From Lachnospiraceae bacterium (GTDB lineage: Bacteria; Bacillota; Clostridia; Lachnospirales; Lachnospiraceae), in the NCBI GenBank assembly GCA_022793375.1, contig JAAWCS010000040.1, positions 1,157 to 65,156 on the forward strand: a DNA stretch of 64,000 nt, given 5' to 3'. The notes below the pieces were generated by a model. The model worked only from the letters and a program-made list of their open reading frames with translations. It had not been told where the DNA came from and ran no database searches. Shown one piece after another: positions 10,741-25,897 of the stretch (the first letter of the stretch is position 1; the number at the start of each line of letters is the position of its first letter). The translations under genes were made by a program, and so were the position numbers.

Positions 10741-11522
10741 CGGTTTTTTGGCATGAAATACGGTTGAACCGCATGTCCTTGCTGATTTGGAGCGCGGCGG
10801 TCGGGTTTTTGATGATGGTTTGTATTTTTATGTTTCCGGAGATGCAGGGAGAGATGGAGGAAGTCGGCGCTATGTTTTCCTCGATGGGCAGCTTTACGGC
10901 GGCATTTGGCATGGACCGGCTGAACTTTGGGGAGTTTTCGGGGTTTTATGGGATTGAGTGCGGCAATATCCTCGGACTGGGCGGCGCCTTTTTTGCGGCG
11001 TTGACCGGGGCAGCGGTTTTGTCAAAAGAGGAAAAGGAACACACGGCGGATTTTTTGCTGACGCATCCGGTGGGCCGCGGGCGGATCGTGGCCGGCAAAC
11101 TGGCCGCCGTGGCCGGACAGCTGCTTTGCCTGAACGGAATCATCCTTGTGCTGGCGTTTGTTTCCATGCAGGCCATCGGAGAGGGTGCGGCCTGGAAGGA
11201 TTTGCTGCTTTTGCACCTGGCTTATTTTCTGCTGCAGCTTGAGGTCGGCGCGGTCTGCTTTGGTCTGTCGGCCTTTTTGCGCCGCGGCAGCTACGGCATT
11301 GGCCTGGGGCTGGCGGCTGTCCTGTACTTTTTAAATATCATTGCCAATTTGACGGAGAAGGCGCGTTTTCTGAAATACATCACCCCGTTTGGCTATGCGG
11401 AGAGCGCGGATATTTTAACGAACGGAAGCATCGACATGGGGATGCTGTTGCCGGGACTTTTGTATGGAGCGATCGGCGTGGCGGCGGCTTTTATCTGGTA
11501 CGCAAGAAAAGATATCCGCTGA
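10737..11522 (+). CDS. ABC-2 family transporter permease
   Basis: 261 aa with six hydrophobic segments. It is translationally coupled (ATGA) to the ATPase gene. Confidence 0.7.
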   Translation: MTVFWHEIRLNRMSLLIWSAAVGFLMMVCIFMFPEMQGEMEEVGAMFSSMGSFTAAFGMDRLNFGEFSGFYGIECGNILGLGGAFFAALTGAAVLSKEEKEHTADFLLTHPVGRGRIVAGKLAAVAGQLLCLNGIILVLAFVSMQAIGEGAAWKDLLLLHLAYFLLQLEVGAVCFGLSAFLRRGSYGIGLGLAAVLYFLNIIANLTEKARFLKYITPFGYAESADILTNGSIDMGMLLPGLLYGAIGVAAAFIWYARKDIR

Positions 11523-12039: not shown

Positions 12040-13364
12040 AAATTCAATTATCCGATCACTTTACGTACAAGAAACTTCTGCGTTTTACGCTGCCGTCGAT
12101 TGTGATGATGATATTCACTTCGATTTACGGAGTGGTGGACGGCTTATTCGTATCGAACTTTGTCGGCAAGACGGCCTTTTCGGCCGTTAATTTTATTATG
12201 CCGTTTTTGATGATTCTTGGCGCGGCGGGGTTTATGTTTGGAACGGGCGGCGGCGCGCTGATCGCAAAGACGCTGGGCGAAGGGAAGCGGACAGAGGCCA
12301 ATCGGCTGTTTTCCCTGATCGTCTATGTTTCCCTGGCCTGCGGCTGTCTGCTGACAATCCTCGGCTTTATCGTCATCCGTCCGCTGGCGGCGGCGCTGGG
12401 TGCGGCGGGACAGCTGTTAGAGGACAGCGTCCTTTACGGACAGGTAAGCCTGCTGGCTGTGCCGGCATTTATTCTGCAGTATGAATTTCAGTGTCTGTTT
12501 GCCGTAGCCGAAAAACCGACGCTGGGTCTGTCGGTGACCGTGGCCGACGGGGTAACCAACATGGTACTCGATGCGATATTTGTCGGGGGTCTTGACTGGG
12601 GAATTGCCGGGGCGGCCGCCGCGACGGCGCTCAGCCAGTGTGTGGGCGGTATCCTGCCGCTTGTATATTTTGCACGGCCAAACGACAGCCTTCTGCGGCT
12701 TGGCCGCACGGCATATGAGGGCCGGCTGCTTGGAAAGGCCTGTCTAAACGGCGCTTCGGAGCTGATGAGCAATCTTTCGATGTCGCTTGTGAACATGCTT
12801 TATAATGTGCAGCTTCTGCGGTACGCGGGCGAGGACGGAATCGCGGCATACGGCGTGCTTATGTATGTGAGCCTGGTGTTTCAGGCGGTGTTTATCGGGT
12901 ATTCGGTCGGCGCGGCCCCGATCGTAAGCTTTCAGTACGGGGCGCAGAACCGGGGAGAACTGCGGGGACTGCGAAAGAAGAGCTTTTTGCTGATCGCTGT
13001 TTTTTCTGGTCTGATGTTTGCGGCCTCGTATGGGCTGGCCGGGCCGCTGTCGTTTGTCTTTGCGGGATATGACCAGGCGTTATATGGGATGACGGTGCAT
13101 GCGTTTTATCTGTTTGCGGTTTCGTTCCTTTTTTCGGGGTATGCGATTTTTGGCTCGGCTTTCTTTACGGCCCTGAACGACGGGCCGGTATCGGCGGCGA
13201 TTTCTTTTTTGCGGACACTGGTCTTTCAGGTGATCGCTATTCTGGCGCTTCCGCTTGTATGGGAGTTAGACGGGATTTGGCTGGCGACGGCGGCGGCAGA
13301 AGTGCTCGCGGCGGCGGTTACGGCCGGGTTTTTGTATGGGAAACGGAAAAAGTATCACTATTAG
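12036..13364 (+). CDS. MATE family efflux transporter
   Basis: 442 aa, 12-TM pattern. The N-terminus 'LLRFTLPSIVMMIFTSIYGVVDGLFVSNFVG' is typical of MATE proteins. Confidence 0.85.
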   Translation: MKIQLSDHFTYKKLLRFTLPSIVMMIFTSIYGVVDGLFVSNFVGKTAFSAVNFIMPFLMILGAAGFMFGTGGGALIAKTLGEGKRTEANRLFSLIVYVSLACGCLLTILGFIVIRPLAAALGAAGQLLEDSVLYGQVSLLAVPAFILQYEFQCLFAVAEKPTLGLSVTVADGVTNMVLDAIFVGGLDWGIAGAAAATALSQCVGGILPLVYFARPNDSLLRLGRTAYEGRLLGKACLNGASELMSNLSMSLVNMLYNVQLLRYAGEDGIAAYGVLMYVSLVFQAVFIGYSVGAAPIVSFQYGAQNRGELRGLRKKSFLLIAVFSGLMFAASYGLAGPLSFVFAGYDQALYGMTVHAFYLFAVSFLFSGYAIFGSAFFTALNDGPVSAAISFLRTLVFQVIAILALPLVWELDGIWLATAAAEVLAAAVTAGFLYGKRKKYHY

Positions 13365-13374
13365 GACAAAGAGA

Positions 13375-13465
13375 CTGTTGCAAAACAAAGATTCGATACA
13401 ACGTATGGCCTTGATGCCCAAACCGGCACAGCCATATTTTGTGTTTTATCGGAGTTTTGCAACAG
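13375..13465 (+). repeat. Copy 1 of a ~90-nt imperfect-hairpin repeat element (ends CTGTTGCAAAAC ... GTTTTGCAACAG)
   Basis: It has a 12-bp perfect terminal inverted repeat. It looks roughly 85% identical by eye to 35234-35320. It starts 11 nt after the MATE stop codon. Confidence 0.8.
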
Positions 13466-13520
13466 TCCCCGTTAAACTCGATTTTCTTTTTGAAACTTTT
13501 CTTTTTAATACAGCGGGTTC

Positions 13521-14156
13521 TCAGCCGTCGCAGGGGTGTCCGGAGAACGTAATCAGCTGTGCGGCATAAGGCAGCGTTTCGATCCAGTCGCAGAAGGTAT
13601 GCCATTCCTGAAGCTTATGATTGCGGCGGGCATGATAGATATGGATCAGCGTTTCATAATTGAGAGTGCAGGTGCGCAGCTGATTGTAGCTGGAGGGCAG
13701 CAGCTGGATCATATCGTACCAGTCGGCCTTGTCCTTTGTCTGCGTATACCGGAGACGAACCTGCTCCAGGTAGGCGACATAGCGCTCAAAATGTGTTTGT
13801 GCCTCCGGTGACAGATGATCGTGACTGAAATCATCGAGAACAAAAGGCTTGCTGTGGATCTTGTGCATGGTAGAACAGGAATTTGCGACCGTAGCCACCT
13901 TGTAGGTATCATATTCTTTCCACCAGTACAGCGGGGCCGCGACATCCGCCGACACAAAAACCATGCGCAAAAACTTGCGGTGATCGCTGCCGGCCCGGCA
14001 CAGCTTCATAGCGAGCGCCAGGTCTTTTTCACCCAGGACATATTGTCCGGTTTCATCATAGGAGCTGTCGCTTAAATGCCAGCTGTTCATCGGGTTGCGG
14101 GCGCCTCGTATCGCATTTTCCAGATTCATCACGTCAAACCGCTCGATTTGCAGCAT
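13521..14156 (-). CDS. ThyX-fold protein lacking the canonical ThyX signature (divergent flavin-dependent thymidylate synthase-like)
   Basis: 'DHRKFLRMVFVSADVAAPLYWWKEYDTYKVATVANSCSTMH' aligns position by position with ThyX 'HxSVLEH..F.I.G.SR...HQLVRHR..S...QSQRY', but RHR becomes DTY and SxRY becomes STMH. 'LLPSSYNQLRTCTLNYETLIHIYHARRNHKLQEW' matches the ThyX C-terminal block. AAGGAGGAG RBS before the ATG at 14156. Confidence 0.55.
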   Translation of the reverse strand: MLQIERFDVMNLENAIRGARNPMNSWHLSDSSYDETGQYVLGEKDLALAMKLCRAGSDHRKFLRMVFVSADVAAPLYWWKEYDTYKVATVANSCSTMHKIHSKPFVLDDFSHDHLSPEAQTHFERYVAYLEQVRLRYTQTKDKADWYDMIQLLPSSYNQLRTCTLNYETLIHIYHARRNHKLQEWHTFCDWIETLPYAAQLITFSGHPCDG

Positions 14157-14225
14157 GTTTCTCCTCCTTATCTTGGCAATCTTTCGCCATTTTAGCACAT
14201 TTTCAGAAACCGGACAAGGTTTCGG

Positions 14226-14254
14226 TTGAAAAAATCCGACTCTTGTGTTAGAGT
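14226..14254 (+). promoter_or_regulatory. Candidate promoter of the BMP lipoprotein gene
   Basis: TTGAAA (14226-14231), 17-nt spacer, TAGAGT (14249-14254) with TGt (extended -10). A leader hairpin tcaaaagg/ccttttga follows. Confidence 0.45.
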
Positions 14255-14321
14255 AGAGGCGTAGTCAAAAGGGGACAGCGAATGTTCCTTTTGATAGTGC
14301 AAGAAAACAAGGAGGAAAAAG

Positions 14322-15473
14322 ATGAAGAAAAGAATTTTGGCACTGGTACTGGCTGCCACAATGGTATTCTCCCTGGCTGCCTGCGGCTCCGGGGATGGCG
14401 GCAGTACGACAGCCGCTTCTGGCGAAGGAACCACGGCGGCTCCGGCCGGCGACGAGACCACGGCGGCTCCGGCCGGCGACGAGACCACGGCAGCTCCCGC
14501 CGGCGATGAAACGCCGGCCGCCCCGACCGGGGATGGGACGATCAAAGTTGGTATGGTTACCGACGTAGGCGGCATTAACGACCATTCCTTTAACCAGACT
14601 TCCTGGGAAGGCTTAAACCGCGCGGCATCGGAGCTTGGCATCGAGGTTACCTACGTGGAATCCAAGACGGATGCCGACTATATGCCCAACATTGAGAGTC
14701 TGATTGACGCGGAATGCGATCTGATCATCTGCGTGGGCTTTATGCTGTCCGAGGCGACCAAAACCGCGGCGGAGAACTACCCGGATCAGAAGTTCGCGAT
14801 CATCGATGACAGTGCGAATGCGGAACTGCCGAACGTGGCCTGCCTGATGTTTGAACAGGCGCAGGCTTCCTATCTGGTAGGGATCGTGGCCGGTATGATG
14901 ACGGAGAAGAATAACGTCGGTTTTGTAATCGGCATGAACACTGGGCCTATGAACCAGTTCGGTTACGGCTACTGCGCCGGCGTTCTGGATGCAAATCCGG
15001 AGGCGACCATTCAGCAGTATAACGCAAACAACTTCGGCGATGCCGGCGTAGGCAAGACGGCTGCCAAGGATATGGTGACCAAGGGCGCGGATGTAATCTT
15101 CCATGCGGCCGGCGGCACCGGTTCCGGCGTGATCGACGGCTGTGCGGAGGAAGGCATCTGGGCGATCGGCGTGGATACCGACCAGAACAGCCTGGCTCCC
15201 GACACGGTTGTTACCTCGGCGATGAAGCGCGTGGATAATGCGAGCTACGACATTGCCAAGGCAGTGCTGGAGGGCACGTATACGGCTGGCGTTCATACCT
15301 ATGGCTTGACGGACGGCGGCGTTGACCTGGCTCCGACTCAGACGCTGCTGCCGGCGGATGTCCTGGCGGCCGTAGAGCAGGCGAAGCAGGATATCATCGA
15401 CGGCAAGATTACCGTTCCGGATAATCAGGCCGACTTTGAAGCAAAATATGGTGAGGTGTACGAGCTCGACTAA
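14322..15473 (+). CDS. BMP family (PnrA/NupN/RnsB-like) nucleoside-binding lipoprotein of an ABC importer
   Basis: Lipobox 'LAAC'. 'KVGMVTDVGGINDHSFNQ' is the BMP family core. A Thr/Ala/Pro/Gly/Asp repeat linker follows the lipidated Cys. Confidence 0.85.
   Translation: MKKRILALVLAATMVFSLAACGSGDGGSTTAASGEGTTAAPAGDETTAAPAGDETTAAPAGDETPAAPTGDGTIKVGMVTDVGGINDHSFNQTSWEGLNRAASELGIEVTYVESKTDADYMPNIESLIDAECDLIICVGFMLSEATKTAAENYPDQKFAIIDDSANAELPNVACLMFEQAQASYLVGIVAGMMTEKNNVGFVIGMNTGPMNQFGYGYCAGVLDANPEATIQQYNANNFGDAGVGKTAAKDMVTKGADVIFHAAGGTGSGVIDGCAEEGIWAIGVDTDQNSLAPDTVVTSAMKRVDNASYDIAKAVLEGTYTAGVHTYGLTDGGVDLAPTQTLLPADVLAAVEQAKQDIIDGKITVPDNQADFEAKYGEVYELD
14430..14537 (+). repeat. In-frame 27-nt tandem repeat (3 good copies and 1 degenerate) encoding the (TTAAPAGDE)n linker
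   Basis: accacggcggctccggccggcgacgag occurs at 14430 and 14457. A variant copy is at 14484 and a degenerate one at 14511. Confidence 0.85.
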
Positions 15474-15508
15474 TAATCCGATGCTTGTACGGATGTCTCA
15501 GGAAAGAG

Positions 15509-15535
15509 GCCGCCGGAGAATTCCGGCGGCTTTTT
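15509..15535 (+). terminator. Strong rho-independent terminator between the binding-protein gene and yjjI
   Basis: gccgccgga-gaat-tccggcggc is a perfect 9-bp GC-rich stem, followed by TTTTT. Confidence 0.85.
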
Positions 15536-15557
15536 GACGGTTTTTTGAAAGTTTCGG

Positions 15558-15586
15558 TAGAAATTTTTGTGAATTTCGTGTATAAT
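15558..15586 (+). promoter_or_regulatory. Candidate promoter for yjjI-yjjW and the ABC ATPase/permease genes
   Basis: TATAAT (15581-15586) is preceded by TGt (extended -10). A weak -35 TAGAAA lies 17 nt upstream. Confidence 0.45.
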
Positions 15587-15641
15587 ATAGTCAGCTATAA
15601 CCGTTTTCCTTTAGGAAACGAAACAGGAGGAGAAATGTGAT

Positions 15642-17186
15642 ATGAGAGAAATCAGTATGGAACGAGTGGAGCAGATCCGCCAGGATATTTATGGTACGAT
15701 CACCAGCCTTACGATGACGCATGAGCAGAAGCTGACGGCGATGTGCAATCATGCCGATTCCCTGATGGAGGTGCTGGATCTCCCGGAAGGGCTAGACGAG
15801 CTTTTGAACGTACCGCTTGAGAAAAAGTGCATCTGCGACCTGAACGAGGGCCATGCGCCGATGCGTCCGCGCTATATTGTGCCGGATTACAGCAAGCTGA
15901 TGCAAGACGGCTGCGAGTTCTTGAAGCTGGATCCGCCGAAGGATCTGCAGGAGGCTTTGAATGCGCTGCTGATTTTCTACAAGCATGTACCGAGCGTGAC
16001 GAATTATCCGGTTTTTATCGGCAACCTGGATCAGCTGATCGACCCTTTCCTGGAGGGGGTGGACGATGAGACGGCGTTTAAGGCGATCCGGCTGTTCATG
16101 ATGCACATTGACCGCACGATCGTCGATTCGTTCTGCCATGCGGATATCGGCCCTAAGCCGACGCGGGCCGGGCTTTTGATTATGAAGGCCGAGGCGGAGC
16201 TGGAGGATGCGACGCCCAATCTGACGATGCGCTACGACCCGGAGATTACGGGCGATGAATTTGCCCTGGCGGGCGTGGACTGCGCGCTGCACAGCGCGAA
16301 GCCGAGCTTTGCCAATCACAAGATGTTTTCTTCGGAGCTGGGGGAGAATTATGCGATCGCCAGCTGCTACAACGGGCTTTTGATCGGCGGCGGTTCGTAT
16401 ACGCTTTGCCGTCTGATCCTGAACCATATCGCAGATCGGGCGGAGAGCATCGAGCAGTTTAAGAACGAGACGCTTCCGTATGTGCTGGATATCATGGCCC
16501 GTTATATGGATGCGCGGATCAAGTTCATGGTGGAAGAGAGCAATTTCTTTGAGTACAATTTCCTGGTGAAGGAAGGGTTTATCAGCAAGGACCGTTTTTC
16601 GGCCATGTACGGCCTGGTCGGTTTGGCGGAGTGCGTCAATACCTTGTTTGAGAAGGAGGGCAAAGAGGGGCGCTTCGGCCACAACGAGGAGGCCAACCAG
16701 CTGGGCGTGGAGATCATGGATATTATCGAGGCGTTTAACAATGCGCATGAGAATCCCTACTGCCTGGGGACGGGCAAGCGTTTCCTGCTGCATGCCCAGG
16801 TAGGACTGGCGGAGGATATCTGCACGAGTCCGGGGACGCGCATCCCGATCGGCGAGGAGCCGGAGGAGTTAATCGACCATCTGCGTGTGCTGGAGAAATT
16901 CCACAAGTATTTCCCTTCGGGCACCGGCGACATTTTCCCGATCGACATTACGGTACATAACAATCCGGAGTATGTGCTGGACATTGTGAAGGGAAGCTTT
17001 AAAGAGGGGATCCGCTATTTGTCGTTCTACCGGGGCGACAGCGATGTGATCCGTGTTACGGGCTATCTGGTGAAGCGCTCGGAGATGGAGAAGCTGGATC
17101 GGGGCGAGGCTGTTTTGCAGAACACCACGGGCCTGGGCCTGGGTTCGGCCAAACAGGGCAAGATCCTGGAGCGTAAGGTGCGTTGA
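15642..17186 (+). CDS. yjjI: YjjI-family glycyl (glycine) radical enzyme, substrate unknown
   Basis: 514 aa, the size of E. coli YjjI. The C-terminal 'DVIRVTGYLV' fits the glycyl radical fingerprint RVxG[FWY]. AGGAGGAG RBS. An activase gene follows directly. Confidence 0.75.
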   Translation: MREISMERVEQIRQDIYGTITSLTMTHEQKLTAMCNHADSLMEVLDLPEGLDELLNVPLEKKCICDLNEGHAPMRPRYIVPDYSKLMQDGCEFLKLDPPKDLQEALNALLIFYKHVPSVTNYPVFIGNLDQLIDPFLEGVDDETAFKAIRLFMMHIDRTIVDSFCHADIGPKPTRAGLLIMKAEAELEDATPNLTMRYDPEITGDEFALAGVDCALHSAKPSFANHKMFSSELGENYAIASCYNGLLIGGGSYTLCRLILNHIADRAESIEQFKNETLPYVLDIMARYMDARIKFMVEESNFFEYNFLVKEGFISKDRFSAMYGLVGLAECVNTLFEKEGKEGRFGHNEEANQLGVEIMDIIEAFNNAHENPYCLGTGKRFLLHAQVGLAEDICTSPGTRIPIGEEPEELIDHLRVLEKFHKYFPSGTGDIFPIDITVHNNPEYVLDIVKGSFKEGIRYLSFYRGDSDVIRVTGYLVKRSEMEKLDRGEAVLQNTTGLGLGSAKQGKILERKVR

Positions 17187-17187
17187 C

Positions 17188-18099
17188 ATGGCCGTCGAGG
17201 CATTGGTGAATAAAATTATCCCCTTCAGCTCGGTGGACGGCCCGGGCAACCGGACGGCGATTTTTCTGCAGGGCTGTAATTTTGACTGCCGCTATTGCCA
17301 CAACCCGGAGACGATCCATCTGTGCGTCTCCTGCGGGATCTGCGTGGAAAAGTGCCCGACGGGGGCGCTTTCGTGGTCGGAGGAGCCGGAGGATCTGAGG
17401 CATGTCCGACATAAGGACGCAGAGGAACGGGAGCGTCGTCGGCTGCGGCCGGGATACGTAAGATATGACGCGGCGAAATGCGTGTTGTGCGATGCATGTA
17501 TCGGGAACTGCCCTCACGGCAGTTCCCCCCGCATTATCCGCATGACGGCGGAGGCGGCGATGGAGCAGGTACGGCGCCAGATGCCGTATATCCGGGGGGT
17601 CACGGTATCCGGCGGGGAATGCACGAGACAGCGGGATTTTCTGGCGGAGCTGTTTACGATGGCGCAGGCGGAAGGGCTTGACTGCCTGTTAGACAGCAAC
17701 GGGACGCTGGATTTTTCGCAGGATAAGGAGCTTTTGGCAGTGACGGACGGCGTGATGCTGGACATCAAGGCCTTTGACGCGGCGGATCACCGTCTGGTGA
17801 CCGGGCGGGATAATGCGATGGTCCTGGAGAACGCCCGCTACCTGGCGTCGCTTGGAAAGCTGCCGGAGATACGGACCGTGATTGTGCCCGGGCTTTTTGA
17901 CGGGGAAGAGTCGGTGAGACGCACGGCCGAGCTTTTGGCGCCGTATCTGGAGGCGGGCGCGATCCGCTACAAGCTGATCCGCTATCGTCCCATGGGAGTG
18001 CGCAGGGAATACGCGGCGCATCCTACGCCGGATCTGGCTTTTATGGAGAAGTTAAAACGCATGGTAAGCGAAATGGGCTTTACGGCGGTGATCGCCTGA
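17188..18099 (+). CDS. yjjW: YjjW-family glycyl radical enzyme activase (radical SAM)
   Basis: 'GCNFDCRYCHNPE' is the CX3CX2C motif. Two ferredoxin-like clusters, 'CVSCGICVEKCP' and 'CVLCDACIGNCP', are present. The ATG lies 1 nt after the yjjI stop. Confidence 0.8.
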   Translation: MAVEALVNKIIPFSSVDGPGNRTAIFLQGCNFDCRYCHNPETIHLCVSCGICVEKCPTGALSWSEEPEDLRHVRHKDAEERERRRLRPGYVRYDAAKCVLCDACIGNCPHGSSPRIIRMTAEAAMEQVRRQMPYIRGVTVSGGECTRQRDFLAELFTMAQAEGLDCLLDSNGTLDFSQDKELLAVTDGVMLDIKAFDAADHRLVTGRDNAMVLENARYLASLGKLPEIRTVIVPGLFDGEESVRRTAELLAPYLEAGAIRYKLIRYRPMGVRREYAAHPTPDLAFMEKLKRMVSEMGFTAVIA

Positions 18100-18149
18100 A
18101 AATAAGCGGCCGGGCAGGCTGGCGGCATGAAAGAAGGAGGAAGATTTTT

Positions 18150-19694
18150 TTGGGAAATATACGGTCGGTGGACTTAGATGCAAAGGTCATTGAGATGAAG
18201 AATATCGTCAAGAAATTCGGTGATTTCGTCGCCAATGACAATATCAATCTAACCGTCCATAAGGGAGAAATCCACGCAATCCTGGGGGAGAACGGCGCCG
18301 GGAAGAGCACGCTGATGAATGTGCTGTACGGTTTGTACAGGCCTACGTCGGGGGAGATTTATGTAAACGGCAAGAAGGAGGAGATCGACGGGCCGGGCAA
18401 GGCGATCGAGTGCGGGATCGGCATGGTGCATCAGCACTTTATGCTGGTGCAGCCTTTTACGGTGACGGAGAATATCGTTCTGGGGATGGAGCCGATGAAG
18501 GGGATCACCCTGGATATGGCCAAGGCCCGGGAGGATGTAAAGAAGATTTCGGAAAAATACGGCATGGCGGTGGATCCGGATGCCCGCATTGAGGATATTT
18601 CCGTGGGGATGCAGCAGAGGGTGGAGATCTTAAAGGTGCTTTACCGGGGCGCGCAGACGTTGATTCTGGACGAGCCGACGGCTTCTTTAACGCCGCAGGA
18701 GATCCGGGAGCTGATTGCGATCATGGAGAACCTGACGGCGGACGGCAAGTCGATCATCCTGATTACGCATAAGCTCAAGGAGATCAAGGAGTCGGCGGAT
18801 TACTGTACGATTATCCGTCTGGGCAAGTACATCGATACGGTGAAGGTGGCCGATGTGACGGAGCAGGATCTGGCCAGCATGATGGTGGGACGCAACGTCA
18901 CGTTTAAGGTGGAGAAGGAGGATAAGGAGCCGGGCGACGTGGTGCTGGAGGTGAAAGACCTGCACGGCGTTGATTACCGGAAGGTGGAGATCTTAAAGGG
19001 CCTGAGCATTGAGGTACGCCGGGGGGAGATCCTGGGGATCGCCGGGATCGACGGCAACGGCCAGACCGAGCTGGTGGAGATTATCACGGGGCTTCGCAAA
19101 GCGGAGAGCGGCAGCATTACGGTCAACGGGGAAAATATTTTCAATGCCAGGCCGCGCACGATTTTTGAGAAGGGCGTTTCCAGCATTCCGGAGGATCGCC
19201 AGAAGCACGGGCTGGTGCTCGATTTTACGGTGGCGGAGAATATGGTGCTGCAAAATTATCGAAAGCCTGAGTATCAGAGCCATGGCTTTTTGAAAAAGGA
19301 TGCGATCCGTCGGTATGCGGAGGAGGCGGTGAAAAAGTACGATGTGCGTCCGGACGATTCGGCCGGCCGGCCGGCGGGGACGCTTTCGGGCGGCAACCAG
19401 CAGAAGGTGATTATTGCCCGCGAGGTGGATAACGATAAGGATCTGCTGATTGCGGTCAATCCGACCCGCGGGCTGGACGTGGGCGCGATTGAATATGTAC
19501 ATAAGTATATCGTGGAGCAGCGCAACAAGGGCAAGGCGGTGCTGCTGGTTTCCTTTGAACTGGACGAGATTATCAGCCTGTCCGACCGCATCGATGTGAT
19601 TTACGACGGGCATATCGCCGGCTCGATGGCCGGGAAGGATGCCGACGAGAATACGCTGGGCTTGATGATGGCGGGAGGTGTGCGACATGAGTAG
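18150..19694 (+). CDS. ABC transporter ATP-binding protein with duplicated ATPase domains (nucleoside/sugar importer type, NupO/RnsA-like)
   Basis: Two nucleotide-binding domains: 'GENGAGKST' ... 'LILDEPTA', and a second domain with 'LSGGNQQKV'. AGGAGG lies about 11 nt before the TTG start. Confidence 0.85.
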   Translation: MGNIRSVDLDAKVIEMKNIVKKFGDFVANDNINLTVHKGEIHAILGENGAGKSTLMNVLYGLYRPTSGEIYVNGKKEEIDGPGKAIECGIGMVHQHFMLVQPFTVTENIVLGMEPMKGITLDMAKAREDVKKISEKYGMAVDPDARIEDISVGMQQRVEILKVLYRGAQTLILDEPTASLTPQEIRELIAIMENLTADGKSIILITHKLKEIKESADYCTIIRLGKYIDTVKVADVTEQDLASMMVGRNVTFKVEKEDKEPGDVVLEVKDLHGVDYRKVEILKGLSIEVRRGEILGIAGIDGNGQTELVEIITGLRKAESGSITVNGENIFNARPRTIFEKGVSSIPEDRQKHGLVLDFTVAENMVLQNYRKPEYQSHGFLKKDAIRRYAEEAVKKYDVRPDDSAGRPAGTLSGGNQQKVIIAREVDNDKDLLIAVNPTRGLDVGAIEYVHKYIVEQRNKGKAVLLVSFELDEIISLSDRIDVIYDGHIAGSMAGKDADENTLGLMMAGGVRHE

Positions 19695-20742
19695 GAAGAA
19701 GAGTATTTTTGATAACCCGGTATTCCTGACGCTGATGGCTATTTTAGTGGGCTTTATCGTGGGCGCTGTGTTTTTGACGGTCATGGGATATGATCCGGTT
19801 CTTGTTTATACGACCATGATCAGCGGCGCTTTGAGCAAACCGCGGTTTTTGTCGTATTCGGTGGTGTATGCCACGCCGCTTATTTTTGTGGGCTTGTCGG
19901 TAGCGTTTTCGTTCCGCACCGGCGTGTTTAATATCGGCGCGGAGGGGCAGTTTGTGGTGGGCAGCATGGCGGCCTGCCTGGTAGGTATCTTTGTAGAGGC
20001 TCCGCCGGTGATCCATGCGATTTTGTGCTTTTTGGCGGCGGCGGCGGCAGGCGCCGTATGGGGCGTGATCGTGGCGGCGATGAAGGTGAAATGGGGCATC
20101 AATGAGGTGCTTTCCATGATTATGTTTAACTGGATTGCGTTCTATCTGTCCAATTACCTGGTGACGATCCCGGCGATCCACAGCGACGGTACGGCGGAGG
20201 CTACCAAAAATGTGGCGGATTCGGCGAAGATTTTGCTGCCGCAGGCGATGCGGACCGGGCTGGCGCCGTCTGCGAACTGGGGGATTCTGATCGCGCTGGC
20301 GTTTGTGGTGCTTGTGTATCTGATCATTGAAAAAACGACGCTGGGCTATGAGCTGAAGGCCGTGGGCTTTAATAAGAATGCGGCGGAGTATGGCGGTATC
20401 AGTGTGAATAAGGCGGTGTTTACGGCGATGGCGATCTCCGGCGCTCTGGGCGGCATGGGAGGCGCGGTACACCTGTTGGGACTGGGGGAACGGATCAGCC
20501 TTTTTGCCGGGCAGGAGGGCTTTGGATTTGAGGGGATCAGCGTAGCGCTGATCGGCGCGTCGAATCCGATCGGCGTGTTTTTCAGCGGCCTGTTTTACGG
20601 GGCCTTGAAGTACGGGGGCAGCAAGCTGAATCTGATCAAGGCGCCTTCGGAGATTATTAAGGTTATTACGGGGACGATCGTATTCTTTATCGCTATTTCC
20701 CATGTGTTTAAGGTCCTGGGTAAGAAGAAGGAGGGAAAATAA
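19687..20742 (+). CDS. ABC importer permease (BMP-type nucleoside transporter, NupP/RnsC-like)
   Basis: About 350-aa polytopic protein overlapping the ATPase stop. The ORF-track start at 19678 (GTG) is an alternative. Confidence 0.8.
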   Translation: MSRKKSIFDNPVFLTLMAILVGFIVGAVFLTVMGYDPVLVYTTMISGALSKPRFLSYSVVYATPLIFVGLSVAFSFRTGVFNIGAEGQFVVGSMAACLVGIFVEAPPVIHAILCFLAAAAAGAVWGVIVAAMKVKWGINEVLSMIMFNWIAFYLSNYLVTIPAIHSDGTAEATKNVADSAKILLPQAMRTGLAPSANWGILIALAFVVLVYLIIEKTTLGYELKAVGFNKNAAEYGGISVNKAVFTAMAISGALGGMGGAVHLLGLGERISLFAGQEGFGFEGISVALIGASNPIGVFFSGLFYGALKYGGSKLNLIKAPSEIIKVITGTIVFFIAISHVFKVLGKKKEGK

Positions 20743-20744
20743 GT

Positions 20745-21686
20745 ATGGATGGAATCATCAACAGTCTGGGTACATTGATTTATGCGACCCTGATTTACAG
20801 CCCTCCGCTTCTGTTTGCCGCTATGGGTTCGTGTTTTTCGGAGAACAGCGGCGTAGTAAACATCGGGATCGAGGGCATGATGACGATCGGCGCTTTTGCG
20901 GGGGCGGCCGTGGGGTATCTTACGGGCAATGCCTGGCTTGGCTTTCTGTGCGCGGGCCTGGCGGGGGCCGCGTTCGGATTGCTGCATGCCGTGGCGACGG
21001 TGTCTTTAAATGCTGACCAGACGATTGCCGGTACGGCGGTCAATTTCCTGGCTCCCGGCGTGGCGCTTTTGATTTCAAAGGCATTGTTTGATTCTTCGGA
21101 TACGCCGGCGCTTCTGGATGCAAAGCTGCCGATGGTGTTTAACGGTGTGTTTGAGGGGTCTACCGTTTGGTCGCGGTTTTTTAAGAACGTGTTTAATACG
21201 TACAGTACTTCGTATCTGGTGTTTATCGTCGTGCTTGTGGTATGGTTTGTATTCTATAAGACGAAGTTCGGCCTGCGGCTTAGGGCGGTGGGCGAGCATC
21301 CGAAGGCCTGCGATACGCTGGGAATTAACGTACAGCGGATGCGTTATACGGCGGTGATTATTTCCGGTTTCCTTTCGGGGCTGGGCGGCGCTTGCGTGAC
21401 GATGGCGATCACGAATCAGTTCAGGCCGATTTCCATCGTGGGTCAGGGCTTTATCGCGATTGCGGCGGTTATTTTTGGTAAGTTCAGGCCGCAGGGGGCG
21501 ATGATGGCCTGTCTGCTGTTTGGCTTTTGTACCGGCCTGCGGGTGGTGCTGGGATCGAATAACTTTATCTCGGCACAGCTGATCTCGATGATCCCGTATG
21601 TGGTGACGGTCGTGGTGCTAATCCTGTTTGTGGGACGGTCGAGGGTGCCGTCGGCCAATGGGAAGCCTTATGTGAAGTCCAGGTAG
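20745..21686 (+). CDS. ABC importer permease (NupQ/RnsD-like)
   Basis: 313-aa polytopic protein starting 3 nt after the previous stop. This is the typical second permease of BMP-type importers. Confidence 0.8.
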   Translation: MDGIINSLGTLIYATLIYSPPLLFAAMGSCFSENSGVVNIGIEGMMTIGAFAGAAVGYLTGNAWLGFLCAGLAGAAFGLLHAVATVSLNADQTIAGTAVNFLAPGVALLISKALFDSSDTPALLDAKLPMVFNGVFEGSTVWSRFFKNVFNTYSTSYLVFIVVLVVWFVFYKTKFGLRLRAVGEHPKACDTLGINVQRMRYTAVIISGFLSGLGGACVTMAITNQFRPISIVGQGFIAIAAVIFGKFRPQGAMMACLLFGFCTGLRVVLGSNNFISAQLISMIPYVVTVVVLILFVGRSRVPSANGKPYVKSR

Positions 21687-21700
21687 GGTGCAGTAGGGAC

Positions 21701-21851
21701 GCCGCGGGAGCGCGCGGTGTATTCTCCGGGCGCGCTTTCGCTCGGGGGGACACGTAGCGGAACTAGGTTCCCAGTCGCTGTGAACAGCGCCTGCGAACCA
21801 AGGTCCGACGTGTCCCCACGGCCCGGCGAATACACCGCGCGCTCCCGCGGC
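21701..21851 (+). other. 151-nt rod-like hairpin with a small side stem (candidate structured 3'-UTR RNA or palindromic DNA element)
   Basis: The 31-nt arms 21701-21731 and 21821-21851 pair at 30 of 31 positions. Inner stems are ggggacacgt/acgtgtcccc, cgga/tccg, ggttc/gaacc and cgctg-tgaa-cagcg. A bulged mini-hairpin gcg-cttt-cgc lies at 21732-21741. Confidence 0.7.
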
Positions 21852-21886
21852 TGCCTGTTGCAGGCTTCCTGGATTCACATGCGAAG

Positions 21887-21920
21887 GCCGCTGGTGGGGC
21901 GGCTTTTTGTGTTTTTGCTT
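21887..21920 (+). terminator. Candidate intrinsic terminator of the ABC operon
   Basis: gccgc (21887-21891) pairs with gcggc (21899-21903), followed by tttttgtgtttttgctttt. Confidence 0.45.
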
Positions 21921-21924
21921 TTGA

Positions 21925-22050
21925 GGGATGTTTGAAGCGGTTTGGGGAGTTTTTTGGGGTGGTTTTTGGGGATGTTTTTTGGAGATGGGGGTTGGGAATG
22001 AGGATGCGAACGGAGAGGGCGCAGAGGGGGTGGGGTGAGTGTGGAAGGGG
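21925..22050 (+). other. C-poor G/T-rich tract with at least 9 runs of G3-G5 (potential G-quadruplex region) upstream of cdd
   Basis: It reads GGGGAGTTTTTTGGGGTGGTTTTTGGGGATGTTTTTTGGAGATGGGGGTTGGG ... GAGGGGGTGGGGTGAGTGTGGAAGGGG. Only a handful of C residues occur in about 150 nt. Confidence 0.6.
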
Positions 22051-22080
22051 ATTGATTGAGAAAGAAGGAGGAAGATTTTT

Positions 22081-22503
22081 ATGAGTAAGTCGGTGTCGGA
22101 TCGGGAGTTGATTGAGGTGGCGATGAAAGCGCGGGAGATGGCGTATACGCCGTATTCGCATTTTCAGGTGGGCGCGGCTTTGCTTACGAAGGATGGGAAG
22201 GTGTACCCGGGGTGCAATATTGAGAACGCGGGGTACACGCCGAGCAATTGCGCGGAGCGGACGGCTTTCTTTAAGGCGGTGAGCGAGGGGGCGCGGGAGT
22301 TTGCGGCGATCGCGATTGTGGCAGGCATGGAGGGCGGCGAGCTGATCCGCACCGCGCCTTGCGGGGTCTGCCGGCAGGTGATGATGGAGTTTTGCGATCC
22401 GGAGACGTTCCGGATTTTGCTGGCGGTTTCGCCGGATCAGTATGAGGAGTGGACGCTGGAGCGGATGCTGCCGCTGGGATTTGGGCCGAAGGATCTGGCC
22501 TGA
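22081..22503 (+). CDS. cdd: Cytidine deaminase
   Basis: 'NCAERTA' and 'PCGVCRQVM' are the zinc-binding motifs. About 140 aa, the homotetrameric type. Confidence 0.9.
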   Translation: MSKSVSDRELIEVAMKAREMAYTPYSHFQVGAALLTKDGKVYPGCNIENAGYTPSNCAERTAFFKAVSEGAREFAAIAIVAGMEGGELIRTAPCGVCRQVMMEFCDPETFRILLAVSPDQYEEWTLERMLPLGFGPKDLA

Positions 22504-22575
22504 GAGGGGCTGACACAATTTTGCCGTGCGGACGGCCGGGTACGGAATATATGAGGATCACAGGAGGATGAAGCA

Positions 22576-23904
22576 ATGAGAATGTATGATATCATTATGA
22601 AGAAACGGAATGGGGGCGTGCTGTCAAAGGACGAAATCCATTTTATGATCGACGGGTACGTGAAGGGGGAGATCCCGGATTATCAGATGTCGGCGATGAC
22701 GATGGCGATTTATTTCCAGGGAATGAACGATGAGGAGACGACGGAATTGACGCTGGCGATGGCGGCTTCGGGGGATCAGATGGATCTGTCGGGGATTGCG
22801 GGCGTGAAGGTGGATAAGCACAGCACGGGCGGCGTGGGCGACAAGACGACACTGGTGCTGGCGCCGATCGTGGCGGCCTGCGGCGGCCGGGTGGCGAAGA
22901 TGTCGGGGCGCGGGCTGGGACATACCGGCGGGACGCTTGACAAGCTGGAGTCGATCCCCGGGCTGTCGATCGCGGTGGAGCCGGAGCGTTTTGTGCGCAC
23001 GGTCAACGAGATCGGGCTGTGCGTGGCCGGACAGACCGGTAACCTGGTGCCGGCGGATAAAAAGCTGTATGCGCTTAGGGATGTGACGGCGACCGTGGAC
23101 AGCCTGCCGCTGATCGCGTCATCGATTATGAGTAAGAAGCTGGCCTCGGGCAGCGACGCGATTGTGCTGGACGTAAAGACGGGCAGCGGGGCCTTTATGA
23201 AAACGACCGAGGATTCGATCGGGCTGGCGCAGAAGATGGTGGCGATCGGGACGCTGGCGGGCCGAAAGGTGGTGGCGCTGATTACCGATATGGATACGCC
23301 GCTGGGGCATTATGTGGGGAATGCGCTGGAGGTGCAGGAGGCGGTGGCCACGCTAAAGGGGCAGGGACCGGAGGATTTGACCGATGTCTGCCTGACGCTG
23401 GCGGCGAATATGATGGAGCTGTCGGGGCTTGGCGGGTATGAGCAGTGCCTGGCAATGGCAAAACAGTCGATCGCCGACGGCAGCGCGTTTGAGAAGCTCT
23501 GCGCAATGGTTGAGGCGCAGGGCGGAGATGCACGGGTGCTTAAGGATCCGGCGCTGTTTGGGCAGGCGAAGTTTACCGGGGAGCTGCGGGCGCCGGCGGC
23601 CGGCTATGTGCAGCATATCGATACGGAGGGCTGCGGCATCGCGGCGGCGATGCTGGGGGCCGGCCGGGAGAAGAAGGAAGATGATATCGATATGCTGGCC
23701 GGGCTTTATCTGGCGAAGAAGGAGGGAGACCGGGTAGAGGCCGGCGAGATCCTGGCGCTTCTCTATACATGTGAAGAAGAGAAGCTGGATGGCGCCCGGG
23801 AACGGCTGGCGGCCTGCTATCGGATCGGCGAAGAAAAACCGGCGTCCCTGCCCTTGATTCTGGCTAAGGTGACAACGGATCGAGTGGAGCGGTATGACGT
23901 CTGA
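22576..23904 (+). CDS. pdp: Pyrimidine-nucleoside phosphorylase / thymidine phosphorylase
   Basis: 'KHSTGGVGDKT' and 'MSGRGLGHTGGTLDKLESIPG' are the family signature. 442 aa. Confidence 0.9.
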   Translation: MRMYDIIMKKRNGGVLSKDEIHFMIDGYVKGEIPDYQMSAMTMAIYFQGMNDEETTELTLAMAASGDQMDLSGIAGVKVDKHSTGGVGDKTTLVLAPIVAACGGRVAKMSGRGLGHTGGTLDKLESIPGLSIAVEPERFVRTVNEIGLCVAGQTGNLVPADKKLYALRDVTATVDSLPLIASSIMSKKLASGSDAIVLDVKTGSGAFMKTTEDSIGLAQKMVAIGTLAGRKVVALITDMDTPLGHYVGNALEVQEAVATLKGQGPEDLTDVCLTLAANMMELSGLGGYEQCLAMAKQSIADGSAFEKLCAMVEAQGGDARVLKDPALFGQAKFTGELRAPAAGYVQHIDTEGCGIAAAMLGAGREKKEDDIDMLAGLYLAKKEGDRVEAGEILALLYTCEEEKLDGARERLAACYRIGEEKPASLPLILAKVTTDRVERYDV

Positions 23905-23962
23905 GCGAACGGTCTGAGCAGGGCGAAAACCGGCCGGGAATGAGAACATAAGAAGCATGGAT

Positions 23963-24020
23963 ATGGCTTCCGCTTTTTTGGCAAGCGTTGTAAAACGCTT
24001 CCTGAAAAAGTGGAAGCCAT
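23963..24020. terminator. 58-nt near-perfect hairpin between pdp and the PRD regulator gene (likely a terminator)
   Basis: atggcttcc ... ggaagccat forms the outer stem and aagcgtt-gtaa-aacgctt the apex. T- and A-runs within the arms also pair. Confidence 0.5.
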
Positions 24021-24079
24021 TTCATATTTTCAGGGGCAGGTTCCTCTGATACAATAAGCAAAAGAAAGGGGCGGGGCCT

Positions 24080-25897
24080 GTGATCGGGAAGCGAGCGCGC
24101 AGCATCATTTTGGAGATTATCAAAAAGGGGGAAGTGAAAATACAGGATTTGTCCGGCAAATACCGTGTATCTGAGCGCACAATCCGCAGCGACCTGGAAG
24201 AGATCGACTATTTTTTGAAGAAACATAAATGTGACCGAATGGAGCGCCGGGGCAAAGGGGTTGTCTCGATCTGCGGCGGCGCCAGTGTGGCGATGCTGAT
24301 TTACCGCCTGATTAACGAGAGCCGGGTCGTGACAGCCAGTTATTCTCCAAACGAGCGTCTGCTGGAATTGTTTTACCGTCTGGCGATGGCAAAGGAGCCG
24401 GTGCGGCTTACGGATTTGGCAGAGGAATTGCTGGTTTCCAAGAGTACGGTCGTAAAGGATCTGGAGCGGCTGAAGGCGCTTTATCTGCCGCAGGGACTGC
24501 GGTTTGCGGGCAACCATGAGGGAATGGAGCTTTTGGGGGCGGAGGAAGAGATTCGCCGGCAGCTGGTAAAACGTTTTATCGAGACGATGGACAAGCATGC
24601 GGTGATGGATTTGACGAACCGGATCATGCACGAAGAACGGATTACCTACAAAGTATTCTGGCGTCTGTTTGAAGGGGTGGATTTAGAACTGGTATGCGGC
24701 TGCATTGAGTTTTTGAAGGTGGGCCTGGGAGCCTGGCTGTCGGACCGGGAATACTTAAATCTGATGGGGCATTTCTGTATTTTGCTCAAGCGTGCCGCGC
24801 TGGGGCGCCATCCGGCAGAGGGAGAGACATGCGAAGAAAGCCCCTGGGGAGCGTTTTTATCGGAGCAGCTGTACCGATGGCTGGAGGAGACGGCGGGACT
24901 TGACCCGGCGGAGAAACCGTATCTGCGCTACATTGTCTACCTGGCTTCGGCGCCCTTGTATTTGCTGGCGCATCCGCTGCCGGCCGCGGCCGGCCGGGAG
25001 ATCGAGGTCTGGCTGCAGGCCTTTGACTGTGTGGGGAATGCATACATAGAGGAGGGATTGCGGCAGGAGTACGGGCTTTTGCACTGGGAGCGGCAGCTGG
25101 GCATCCCCGGCAGTCCTCCGGTCGTGGAGCTGGAGGAGGGGGCCTTTGCCGCGGTATATGCAAAGCTGGAACCGCTGCTTCCAAAGAGCTTTACCAGGGA
25201 CGAACGATGGCGGATAGCGGCGCATTTCATTGCCGGGACGGATTTTCCGGGGCAGAAGGGGCACAAACGGGTGCTGGTGGTGAGCGATAAACCGAGTTCG
25301 TTTATCCGGCTTTTGATCGATCAGATTGTGCCGATGTTTGACATCGAGATCGTGGGCGTCACGGGGCTTGCACAGCTGTCGAAAAACCGGCGGACACTGC
25401 CGGTGGACTGCATTTTGAGTACCATTCATCTGCAATTGGAAGATATAGAAGTGGCAGAGGTACATCCGCTGTTGAATTTGGAGGATATCGGCGTATTGGA
25501 GCAGCATTTTTTCCCGCGGAAAGCGCCGCCGGAAAGGCCGTTTGCCGCAGATCGCTGCGGGAGGGATACGGAAATTTTGTGGGCCGAGCAGGAGGTCAAG
25601 GACGAGCCGTGCGAAACGGCCGCCGTCCTCTCGCAGCTTTTGCTGTCACAGGGCGGGTGCAGCCTGCCGTTAGCTGGAAGCATTGAAGATACGATACGCA
25701 AACAACGGTTTTTGCTGAGGATTGGCCGCACGCAGATTTTAAACAATCGAAATTATATGACGGTAAAAAAGAACCGGGTGGTAGGATGCCGGCTCCGGGG
25801 CGACGGTCCGGTTAAGGCGGTGATTCTGATCTCGGTGGCGAGCCCGGAGCAGTATCTGGAGGTGGTGTCCGGTTTTTTGACAGGAGGAATCGAATGA
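24080..25897 (+). CDS. PRD domain-containing PTS-controlled transcriptional regulator (MtlR/LicR/BglG-family activator)
   Basis: N-terminal HTH 'IQDLSGKYRVSERTIRSDLEEI'. 605 aa. It sits directly upstream of, and overlaps, the PTS EIIA gene. Confidence 0.7.
   Translation: MIGKRARSIILEIIKKGEVKIQDLSGKYRVSERTIRSDLEEIDYFLKKHKCDRMERRGKGVVSICGGASVAMLIYRLINESRVVTASYSPNERLLELFYRLAMAKEPVRLTDLAEELLVSKSTVVKDLERLKALYLPQGLRFAGNHEGMELLGAEEEIRRQLVKRFIETMDKHAVMDLTNRIMHEERITYKVFWRLFEGVDLELVCGCIEFLKVGLGAWLSDREYLNLMGHFCILLKRAALGRHPAEGETCEESPWGAFLSEQLYRWLEETAGLDPAEKPYLRYIVYLASAPLYLLAHPLPAAAGREIEVWLQAFDCVGNAYIEEGLRQEYGLLHWERQLGIPGSPPVVELEEGAFAAVYAKLEPLLPKSFTRDERWRIAAHFIAGTDFPGQKGHKRVLVVSDKPSSFIRLLIDQIVPMFDIEIVGVTGLAQLSKNRRTLPVDCILSTIHLQLEDIEVAEVHPLLNLEDIGVLEQHFFPRKAPPERPFAADRCGRDTEILWAEQEVKDEPCETAAVLSQLLLSQGGCSLPLAGSIEDTIRKQRFLLRIGRTQILNNRNYMTVKKNRVVGCRLRGDGPVKAVILISVASPEQYLEVVSGFLTGGIE

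Follow-up and report, generated by a model that had tools for sequence, protein, structure and literature searches.

A YjjI-family glycyl radical enzyme and its YjjW activase in a probable nucleoside uptake and catabolism cluster of a Lachnospiraceae bacterium

YjjI and its activase YjjW form a widespread orphan family of glycyl radical enzymes (GREs), which occurs in Escherichia coli, Salmonella, Haemophilus, many gut Lachnospiraceae, and some Actinomycetota and Archaea. Here we describe a member of this family from a 64,000-nucleotide stretch of DNA (hereafter, the window) of a Lachnospiraceae bacterium (GenBank assembly GCA_022793375.1, contig JAAWCS010000040.1), in which the yjjI-yjjW pair is embedded among the genes of an ATP-binding cassette (ABC) importer of the BMP type, followed by nucleoside salvage genes. 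Gene identities and neighbourhood comparisons suggest that the pair encodes an oxygen-sensitive GRE and its dedicated radical S-adenosylmethionine (SAM) activase, which, as a reasonably probable working model, belong to a cluster for nucleoside uptake and catabolism.

The E. coli K-12 YjjI and YjjW proteins (b4380/b4379; PF11230, formerly DUF3029) are one point of comparison. The window YjjI is 40% identical to its E. coli counterpart over the full length, with the same SCYN loop and RVTGY motif, an activase gene directly downstream, and nucleoside catabolism genes adjacent. The original prediction placed E. coli yjjW-yjjI next to deoCABD, and this was confirmed, with divergent transcription and 257 bp between yjjI and deoC. 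The E. coli pair is thus a separate, divergent, FNR-activated unit next to deoCABD, whereas the window pair sits inside an importer operon. Activation of E. coli yjjI by FNR is direct (PMC3688515) and fits an oxygen-sensitive enzyme. Co-expression of yjjI with nitrate/FNR regulon genes has led others to a speculative proposal of a role in nitrogen metabolism (PMC3228777). In agreement with the statement that YjjI has no assigned substrate, a full-text literature search returned only FNR regulation, expression tables, and this speculative proposal. The same search gave no account of yjjI-yjjW embedded repeatedly in nucleoside operons, or of a distinction between YjjI and ribonucleotide reductase (RNR).

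The second point of comparison is provided by the BMP/PnrA nucleoside importers (Treponema and Streptococcus PnrA, Bacillus nupNOPQ). The window shares with them a lipoprotein, a tandem ATPase, two BPD_transp_2 permeases, and adjacent cdd and pdp genes, but here a GRE-activase pair interrupts the transporter genes. To our knowledge, described BMP/PnrA systems carry no radical enzyme. The genes of the cluster are listed below by window position.

14322-15473, + strand: bmp, BMP/PnrA-family lipoprotein, substrate-binding protein of the ABC importer (PF02608, E 1.4e-75)
15642-17186, + strand: yjjI, YjjI-family GRE, 514 amino acids (TIGR04040, PF11230)
17188-18099, + strand: yjjW, radical-SAM activase of YjjI, 303 amino acids (TIGR04041, PF04055, Fer4_12, Fer4_7)
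18150-19694, + strand: tandem-domain ABC ATPase of the BMP importer (PF00005 twice, E 4e-54)
19678-20742, + strand: importer permease 1, BPD_transp_2 (PF02653, E 2e-39)
20745-21686, + strand: importer permease 2, BPD_transp_2 (PF02653, E 1.3e-42)
22081-22503, + strand: cdd, tetrameric-type cytidine deaminase (TIGR01354, 133.8 bits, cut-off 113.65)
22576-23904, + strand: pdp, pyrimidine-nucleoside phosphorylase (NF004747, 577 bits, cut-off 559; TIGR02644, 573 bits)

The layout agrees with the original prediction, all nine open reading frames (ORFs) of which were recovered at the same coordinates in our ORF scan. The BMP lipoprotein gene lies upstream of yjjI, as established by its lipobox (LAAC) and the PF02608 match, and the ATPase and permease genes lie on the other side of the pair. 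The activase gene begins 1 nt past the yjjI stop codon, the ATPase gene starts 50 nt beyond yjjW, permease 1 overlaps the ATPase gene by 17 nt, and permease 2 follows after a 2-nt gap, although the start codon of the ATPase ORF is uncertain (TTG at 18150). The positions of cdd and pdp downstream of the importer were likewise verified by TIGR01354 and NF004747 scores above the cut-offs, and Pdp is 43% identical to E. coli DeoA. The BMP importer set is complete (PF02608 lipoprotein, tandem ABC ATPase, and two BPD_transp_2 permeases); its top NCBIfam match, 'putative B6 ABC transporter', reached 110 against a cut-off of 400, far below it. In Bmp the lipobox is followed by a three-fold TTAAPAGDE low-complexity linker (window 14400-14560), a tether of the typical Gram-positive lipoprotein type.

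The exact YjjI sequence is deposited as NCBI MCI8566216.1, from a Lachnospiraceae metagenome-assembled genome. In a check against the curated hidden Markov models, set in advance as a refutation test, both proteins scored above the cut-offs (YjjI, 678.6 bits for TIGR04040 with a cut-off of 498.3, and 728 bits for PF11230; YjjW, 343.5 bits for TIGR04041 with a cut-off of 250.2). The predicted C-terminal fingerprint 'VIRVTGYLV' is present in the 514-residue protein, with the glycyl radical motif R471-V-T-G474-Y close to the C-terminus and a Cys loop at S241-C242-Y-N. YjjW carries the radical-SAM motif CNFDCRYC (CX3CX2C) and two ferredoxin-type 4Fe-4S Cys clusters, CVSCGICVEKCP and CVLCDACIGNCP, as predicted. 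Both the RVTGY Gly and the SCYN Cys were kept in 172 of 172 near-full-length homologs and were also invariant in the alignments A1, A2, and A4. The last of these comprised 21 diverse sequences (an archaeon, Actinomycetota, Oligoflexia, Ferrimonas, enterics, and several Firmicute clades) and had about 30 invariant columns, including S-C-x-N (C242) and R-x-x-G (G474) in window protein numbering, with C242 as the sole invariant Cys. Other invariant residues are E69, R77, Y78, H166, N193, N244, R257, E311, H384, Q386, D392, and R400. These motifs suggest that YjjI is family-like in its Gly-to-Cys radical relay. Among 1.84 billion representatives clustered at 50% identity, the family accounted for only about 20 full-length clusters, yjjW neighboured yjjI in 16 of 17 clades, and no YjjI was found in the viral contigs scanned. 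Two Pasteurellaceae-like metagenome contigs (L107 and L112, about 10016-11509) had an intact yjjI with both motifs but no yjjW or nupC after it, the next gene being recQ-like on the opposite strand; part of this lineage may have lost or relocated its activase.

The surroundings of yjjI were first compared among close relatives. Scanning one genome for each GTDB species gave at least 585 YjjI loci, and the best 80 of these were taken with 10-kb flanks. They are Lachnospiraceae-type loci, with YjjI 67-88% identical to the window protein. Neighbours were scored by tblastn with the window proteins and the E. coli Deo proteins, and 43 loci had full flanks. The counts were as follows.

Bmp: 67 of 80 loci; 40 of 43 full-flank loci
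Importer ATPase: 66 of 80; 40 of 43
YjjW: 72 of 80; 41 of 43
Udp-type phosphorylase: 45 of 80; 29 of 43
Cdd: 43 of 80; 27 of 43
DeoC: 35 of 80; 31 of 43
DeoB: 33 of 80; 27 of 43
DeoD: 13 of 80; 11 of 43

Bmp lay directly 5' and YjjW directly 3' of yjjI in 51 of the 80 loci, and the importer ATPase followed yjjW in most Lachnospiraceae-type loci. The linkage survives reordering, as in bmp-ABC-perm-perm-yjjI-udp-deoB-yjjW-deoD-deoC. The isolate Clostridium sp. AT4 has the order crp/fnr-udp-bmp-yjjI-yjjW-ABC-perm-perm-deoD-deoC-cdd-deoB (NCBIfam/Pfam names). Together with its closest relatives (L002-L006), the window represents a sub-type in which cdd takes the place of deoD, deoC, and deoB; pdp is also present where the contig was long enough, which was seen in L002 only.

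More distant clades were reached by exact-protein look-ups of divergent cluster representatives and by a single metagenome scan in which a divergent member served as the ranking reference. The combined set held 172 YjjI loci from genomes and metagenomes, of which 147 were informative (at least 6 kb of flank), and 65% single linkage defined 17 unevenly sampled clades. A nucleoside transporter, cleavage, pentose, or deaminase gene was present in the flank of 96 of the 147 informative loci, and a nucleoside-related gene lay on the same strand within 3 kb of the pair in 91. By clade, the linked loci were distributed as follows.

Clade 0 (Lachnospiraceae-type): 81 of 89 informative loci linked
Clade 1: 6 of 20
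Clade 2: 7 of 19
Clade 6: 2 of 2
E. coli clade: linked
L088 clade: loosely linked
The 11 other clades: none linked

The distant nucleoside-linked clades, in which YjjI is 38-55% identical to the window protein, showed the following arrangements.

L093: pnp-(sulfatase-like)-yjjI-yjjW-MFS-bmp-ABC-perm-perm-pnp-x-cdd, preceded at some distance by genes for a nucleoside hydrolase (iunH) and an amidohydrolase (MFS, major facilitator superfamily; YjjI 43% identical to the window protein)
L119, in the clade of L093: rbsK-like-iunH-iunH-pnp-(sulfatase-like)-yjjI-yjjW
L128, L129, L140, and L142: rbsK-yjjI-yjjW with iunH (rbsK-yjjI-yjjW-x-iunH), and a BMP importer upstream in L128 (ribokinase 334 bits, TIGR02152)
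L173: yjjI-yjjW-bmp-ABC-perm-perm-deaminase-udp
L103 and L094: bmp-yjjI-yjjW-ABC-perm-perm (clade 47% identical to the window protein)
L097-L102 and L105 (Haemophilus-like): yczE<>yjjI-yjjW-nupC(-deoD) (NupC 546 bits, TIGR00804)
L088: BMP importer 6 kb upstream of yjjI

The order pgk-fba-orfH-yczE-yjjI of the Haemophilus-like loci presumably matches Haemophilus HI0525-HI0521. This order agrees with the identification of HI0523 as orfH (PMC13552136). In L093 (8399-9934) and L119 (3322-4900), a 511-residue protein of the sulfatase/alkaline-phosphatase superfamily stands directly 5' of yjjI and after a PNP-family gene. Its scores with the arylsulfatase and choline-sulfatase models were about 199 bits, a long way below the cut-offs, and it may be an enzyme of phospho- or sulfo-esters that shares its substrate with YjjI.

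In total, at least seven distinct nucleoside-linked architectures were found, including the BMP importer with udp, deoD, deoC, cdd, and deoB, the yjjIW-nupC-deoD order, the rbsK-yjjIW-iunH order, and E. coli. In a rough estimate from about 12 nucleoside loci per 4-Mb genome, chance gives a neighbour within 10 kb in about 5% of cases and on the same strand within 3 kb in about 1%. At least seven independent immediate adjacencies in a few dozen lineages are far above this rough estimate, which is not tree-aware. Nucleoside genes are strongly over-represented around YjjI homologs, and this holds across several independent gene orders and for two unrelated kinds of transporter; a lack of such enrichment had been set as a further refutation test, which the proposal survived. 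In support of a functional link to nucleoside catabolism, the pair is accompanied by two unrelated transporter families (BMP-ABC and NupC), two unrelated chemistries for the glycosidic bond (phosphorolysis and hydrolysis), and both pentose routes (DeoB/DeoC and ribokinase). On this comparative evidence, we consider it likely that YjjI and YjjW are functionally linked to nucleoside catabolism. As the transporter is the most constant partner, the substrate would be an imported nucleoside or its ribosyl part.

In the window, yjjI and yjjW most likely share a transcript with the importer ATPase and permease genes. The putative transcription signals of the region are as follows.

15504-15535, + strand: hairpin 3' of bmp, terminator-like or mRNA-stabilising, followed by a T-run (14-bp stem, 8 GC pairs)
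15558-15586, + strand: promoter-like site TAGAAA-17-TATAAT, 5' of yjjI (consensus match only)
21883-21907, + strand: terminator-like hairpin closing the yjjI-to-permease unit (minimum free energy -17.8 kcal/mol, z -3.2)

The hairpin after bmp is GC-rich (minimum free energy -26.6 kcal/mol, z -4.3). Just beyond it and ahead of yjjI, the promoter-like site is the top-scoring sigma-70-type match in 13000-24500, a consensus match at 10 of 12 positions. The second hairpin stands between the permeases and cdd. Given these two hairpins and the promoter-like site, three transcription units are possible, the tightest being yjjI-yjjW-ATPase-permease-permease. A hairpin 3' of the binding-protein gene is frequent in ABC operons and compatible with read-through. 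The stop codon of permease 2 is directly followed by a nearly perfect palindrome, about 150 nt long (21698-21854), which as RNA folds at -135 kcal/mol (z -10.3) and is separated from cdd by a G/T-rich spacer of about 170 nt. Within the 64-kb window, only its own two arms match each other, and it may be an insertion resembling repetitive extragenic palindromic elements or miniature inverted-repeat transposable elements, or a processing/stability element. Scanned against Rfam at gathering thresholds, the entire window matched no riboswitch and no other RNA family. The statement that no regulator gene lies in the cluster is true of the window, but about 28 related Lachnospiraceae-type loci have a Crp/Fnr-family regulator (cNMP_binding and HTH_Crp_2) at the head of the udp-bmp-yjjI cluster (e.g., L033:7123-7905 and L023:172-903). 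This regulator is a candidate controller of the entire cluster.

Several observations weigh against a role in nucleoside catabolism. In 11 of the 17 clades the yjjI-yjjW pair is free-standing, with no nucleoside gene near and no conserved neighbours. Such pair-alone loci occur in an archaeon, an actinomycete, Ferrimonas, Proteus, Caminicella, Tepidibacter, Haloimpatiens, and Lutispora, and make up most of a 497-residue Clostridia clade. As many pairs are free-standing, yjjI-yjjW needs no dedicated neighbours; in these lineages the context is uninformative, and a more general role or substrate is possible. The many Lachnospiraceae loci are not phylogenetically independent of one another. The adjacency to deo in E. 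coli, being divergent, is weak evidence when taken alone, and it was further downgraded because in Proteus the pair retains its smp/serB side with no deo operon adjacent. Nucleoside transport by the BMP importer is a prediction from its family and context (cdd, pdp, udp, and deoD). No deoB, deoC, or deoD was found anywhere in the window, and the hairpins after bmp and permease 2 could split the transcripts. Some contexts point elsewhere: in L134, L137, and L146, yjjW is followed by a divergent DeoR-family regulator and an ascorbate-type (UlaA) phosphotransferase system (PTS), a sugar-phosphate rather than a nucleoside context; an MFS transporter with GDPD lies near the pair in L092; and in one locus, of Caminicella sporogenes (L082:9499-10008), a dihydrofolate reductase gene overlaps the yjjI start (folA-yjjI-yjjW). 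Lastly, any particular substrate among the nucleosides and pentoses would be a candidate named from context.

These observations bear on the possibility that the association reflects co-regulation only, with the YjjI-YjjW substrate unrelated to nucleosides (a sugar phosphate, an organic acid, or a stress compound) and the genes united by shared conditions of anoxic scavenging. The free-standing pairs in most clades, the co-expression and nitrogen-metabolism proposal for E. coli, the terminator-like hairpin and promoter-like site ahead of the window yjjI, and the PTS/DeoR and MFS/GDPD contexts would all be accommodated by such an explanation. However, it sits poorly with at least seven different gene orders, and with the finding that BMP-ABC and NupC transporters, and phosphorylase and hydrolase chemistries, each occur on the same strand within 3 kb of yjjIW. 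In an annotation-free clustering of neighbouring ORFs, the families present in at least four clades were YjjW, parts of the BMP importer, PNP/UDP phosphorylases, ribokinase, and a generic ABC ATPase (11 loci), and apart from this last family no non-nucleoside functional partner was common to several clades. We therefore regard co-regulation only as unlikely. The proposal that YjjI acts in nucleoside catabolism is partly supported, as a functional link drawn from recurrent gene context, but the link is not universal, and the argument from a neighbouring ThyX-type gene, considered below, fails.

As the PDB holds no YjjI-family structure, the protein was modelled with AlphaFold from a 19-sequence alignment, at moderate confidence (predicted local distance difference test score (pLDDT) 74, predicted template modelling (TM) score 0.79). 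In Foldseek searches of the PDB, the top 14 matches of the model were all NrdD, the class III RNR (best 8p2s_B, E 4e-12, TM 0.67), followed by PflD, HypD, pyruvate formate-lyase (PFL), CutC, and other GREs. The modelled ten-stranded GRE barrel thus appears closest to NrdD (TM 0.6-0.67), and hhalign placed the YjjI family profile on a homologous core of E. coli NrdD with a probability of 92% (YjjI 15-360, NrdD 120-532). Both enzymes share the logic of a glycyl radical, a thiyl radical, and a radical-SAM activase, and a ribosyl substrate is plausible for YjjI. Nevertheless, the NrdD Cys of the reducing face (E. coli C175, T4 C79) corresponds to a two-residue deletion in YjjI, where 'PRY--ILPDY' aligns with the NrdD segment 'PMFNCMLIDL' containing Asn-Cys175. 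YjjI also lacks the C-terminal Cys4 zinc ribbon, having no Cys beyond residue 395, and shows no ATP-cone match in Pfam and no detectable specificity-site apparatus. It is 100-200 residues shorter than NrdD, and YjjW has two additional ferredoxin-like clusters, as in the activases of the PFL and eliminase types.

These features bear on the idea that YjjI is a stripped-down RNR-like reductase, making deoxyribosyl compounds from imported ribonucleosides or ribose phosphates for DeoC or for deoxynucleoside salvage independent of RNR. The modelled fold, the hhalign result, a partial match to Pfam NRDD (PF13597, 28.4 bits, residues 250-462), and the DeoC linkage in full-flank loci all lean towards it. 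Yet the bottom-face Cys of NrdD is deleted, the family has a single invariant Cys, and the zinc ribbon and ATP cone are missing. Moreover, strictly anaerobic growth of E. coli requires nrdDG despite the presence of yjjI, and the window cluster and the ribokinase/IunH-type clusters do without deoC. Because the second Cys and the zinc ribbon are both missing, YjjI would not be a reductase of the class III RNR type, and the reductase reading is very improbable. YjjI as a substitute RNR was also judged unlikely, the reducing Cys and zinc ribbon being missing. An E. coli strain without any RNR has been published, but as its growth was aerobic it does not test such a substitution.

Comparison with the other GREs led to a similar separation. 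With PFL, YjjI shows a weak alignment of the N-terminal half and the Cys loop ('YgIaSCYN' in YjjI, 'YAIACCVS' in PFL), but it has Ser241-Cys242 where PFL has Cys418-Cys419, and PF02901 scores 22.1, under its gathering threshold of 24.3. The GRE 1,2-eliminases (CutC, the glycerol and propanediol dehydratases, HypD, and PflD/YbiW) resemble YjjI in having one catalytic Cys. They differ from it by a G-C-V-E loop with a catalytic Glu at +2, in place of which YjjI has A-S-C-Y-N with an invariant Asn at +2. Activases of the PFL and eliminase groups belong to the same subfamily as YjjW (TIGR02494-like), but YjjI is about 250-300 residues shorter than these enzymes. Taken together, YjjI is a distinct minimal GRE that fails the defining tests of RNR, PFL, and the known eliminases.

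In the mechanism that we propose, YjjW would use SAM to generate a radical on G474, which would be relayed to C242. The resulting thiyl radical would take a hydrogen atom from a nucleoside brought in by the importer, or from the ribosyl or deoxyribosyl (phosphate) part of it. With only one conserved Cys, no second Cys of the RNR type, and no zinc ribbon, a redox-neutral step would be more likely than a reduction, e.g., an RNR-like elimination (dehydration) of the 2'-OH or another lyase step. One candidate reaction would be abstraction of the 3'-H and elimination of the 2'-OH with no reduction, and the product could then enter the Deo, phosphorylase, or ribokinase routes under anoxia. That YjjI is a minimal, RNR-derived glycyl radical lyase or dehydratase acting on the ribosyl moiety of an imported nucleoside or pentose phosphate, as a new anaerobic step, is a tentative suggestion. 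The specific chemistry, an RNR-like redox-neutral elimination or lyase step, is a doubtful assignment when drawn from motifs and context.

A further possibility is that the YjjI substrate is the nucleobase once released, or else an unusual riboside that enters through the same transporters, modified or otherwise atypical (e.g., 5'-deoxyadenosine, pseudouridine, or a 2'-O-methyl nucleoside). Canonical nucleoside catabolism is complete without an extra enzyme, the transporter is the tightest partner of the pair (bmp-yjjIW-ABC alone, and yjjIW-nupC), and two of the architectures include deaminases of the 5'-deoxyadenosine/guanine deaminase superfamily, which would all suit such a substrate. However, marker genes specific to these pathways do not recur beside yjjIW, and the ribokinase, DeoB, and DeoC partners indicate the pentose moiety, so that this alternative appears quite unlikely.

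The cluster is flanked by units unrelated to it, with a MarR regulator and a MatE transporter upstream, and an Mga/DeoR-type regulator and PTS components downstream. One further ORF stands alone between the MatE gene and the nucleoside cluster.

13521-14198, - strand: unassigned ORF, 225 amino acids (ORF scan)

The original prediction took this divergent ORF for a ThyX-fold gene, which found no support: there was no Pfam match at E<=10, including Thy1/ThyX (PF02511), and no NCBIfam match or PDB sequence match. After these negative searches, the ORF was rejected as evidence of a nucleotide theme. It matched phrog_6721 (E 1e-69), a family labelled 'unknown function', and its homologs occur in 28 phage records (Clostridium phiCTP1, Enterocloster bolteae, and Fusobacterium phages), all 'hypothetical'. 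A single-sequence AlphaFold model was unusable (pLDDT 34), and the ORF accompanied the cluster only in the four closest loci. We treated it as a putative unrelated phage-type gene.

The YjjI/YjjW family is catalogued and the locus is publicly annotated, so that the genes themselves are not new; what is new relative to the literature searched is the recurrent embedding of yjjIW in nucleoside operons and the distinction between YjjI and RNR. PDB entries from 2024 describe the E. coli proteins PflD and YbiW as anhydro-sugar-phosphate dehydratases, and YjjI is therefore seemingly among the last orphan GREs of E. coli K-12. The comparative evidence narrows the candidate substrates to nucleosides, deoxynucleosides, ribose and deoxyribose, and their 1- and 5-phosphates, and tractable organisms are available in E. 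coli, H. influenzae, Clostridium sp. AT4, and Lachnoanaerobaculum gingivalis KCOM 2030. For anaerobes of the gut and mucosa, nucleosides are a major source of nutrients, and if the proposed link is true, nucleoside scavenging would gain an oxygen-sensitive step. If the lyase or dehydratase reading is also true, it would add a new reaction class to the GREs and provide a function for an orphan GRE of E. coli K-12.

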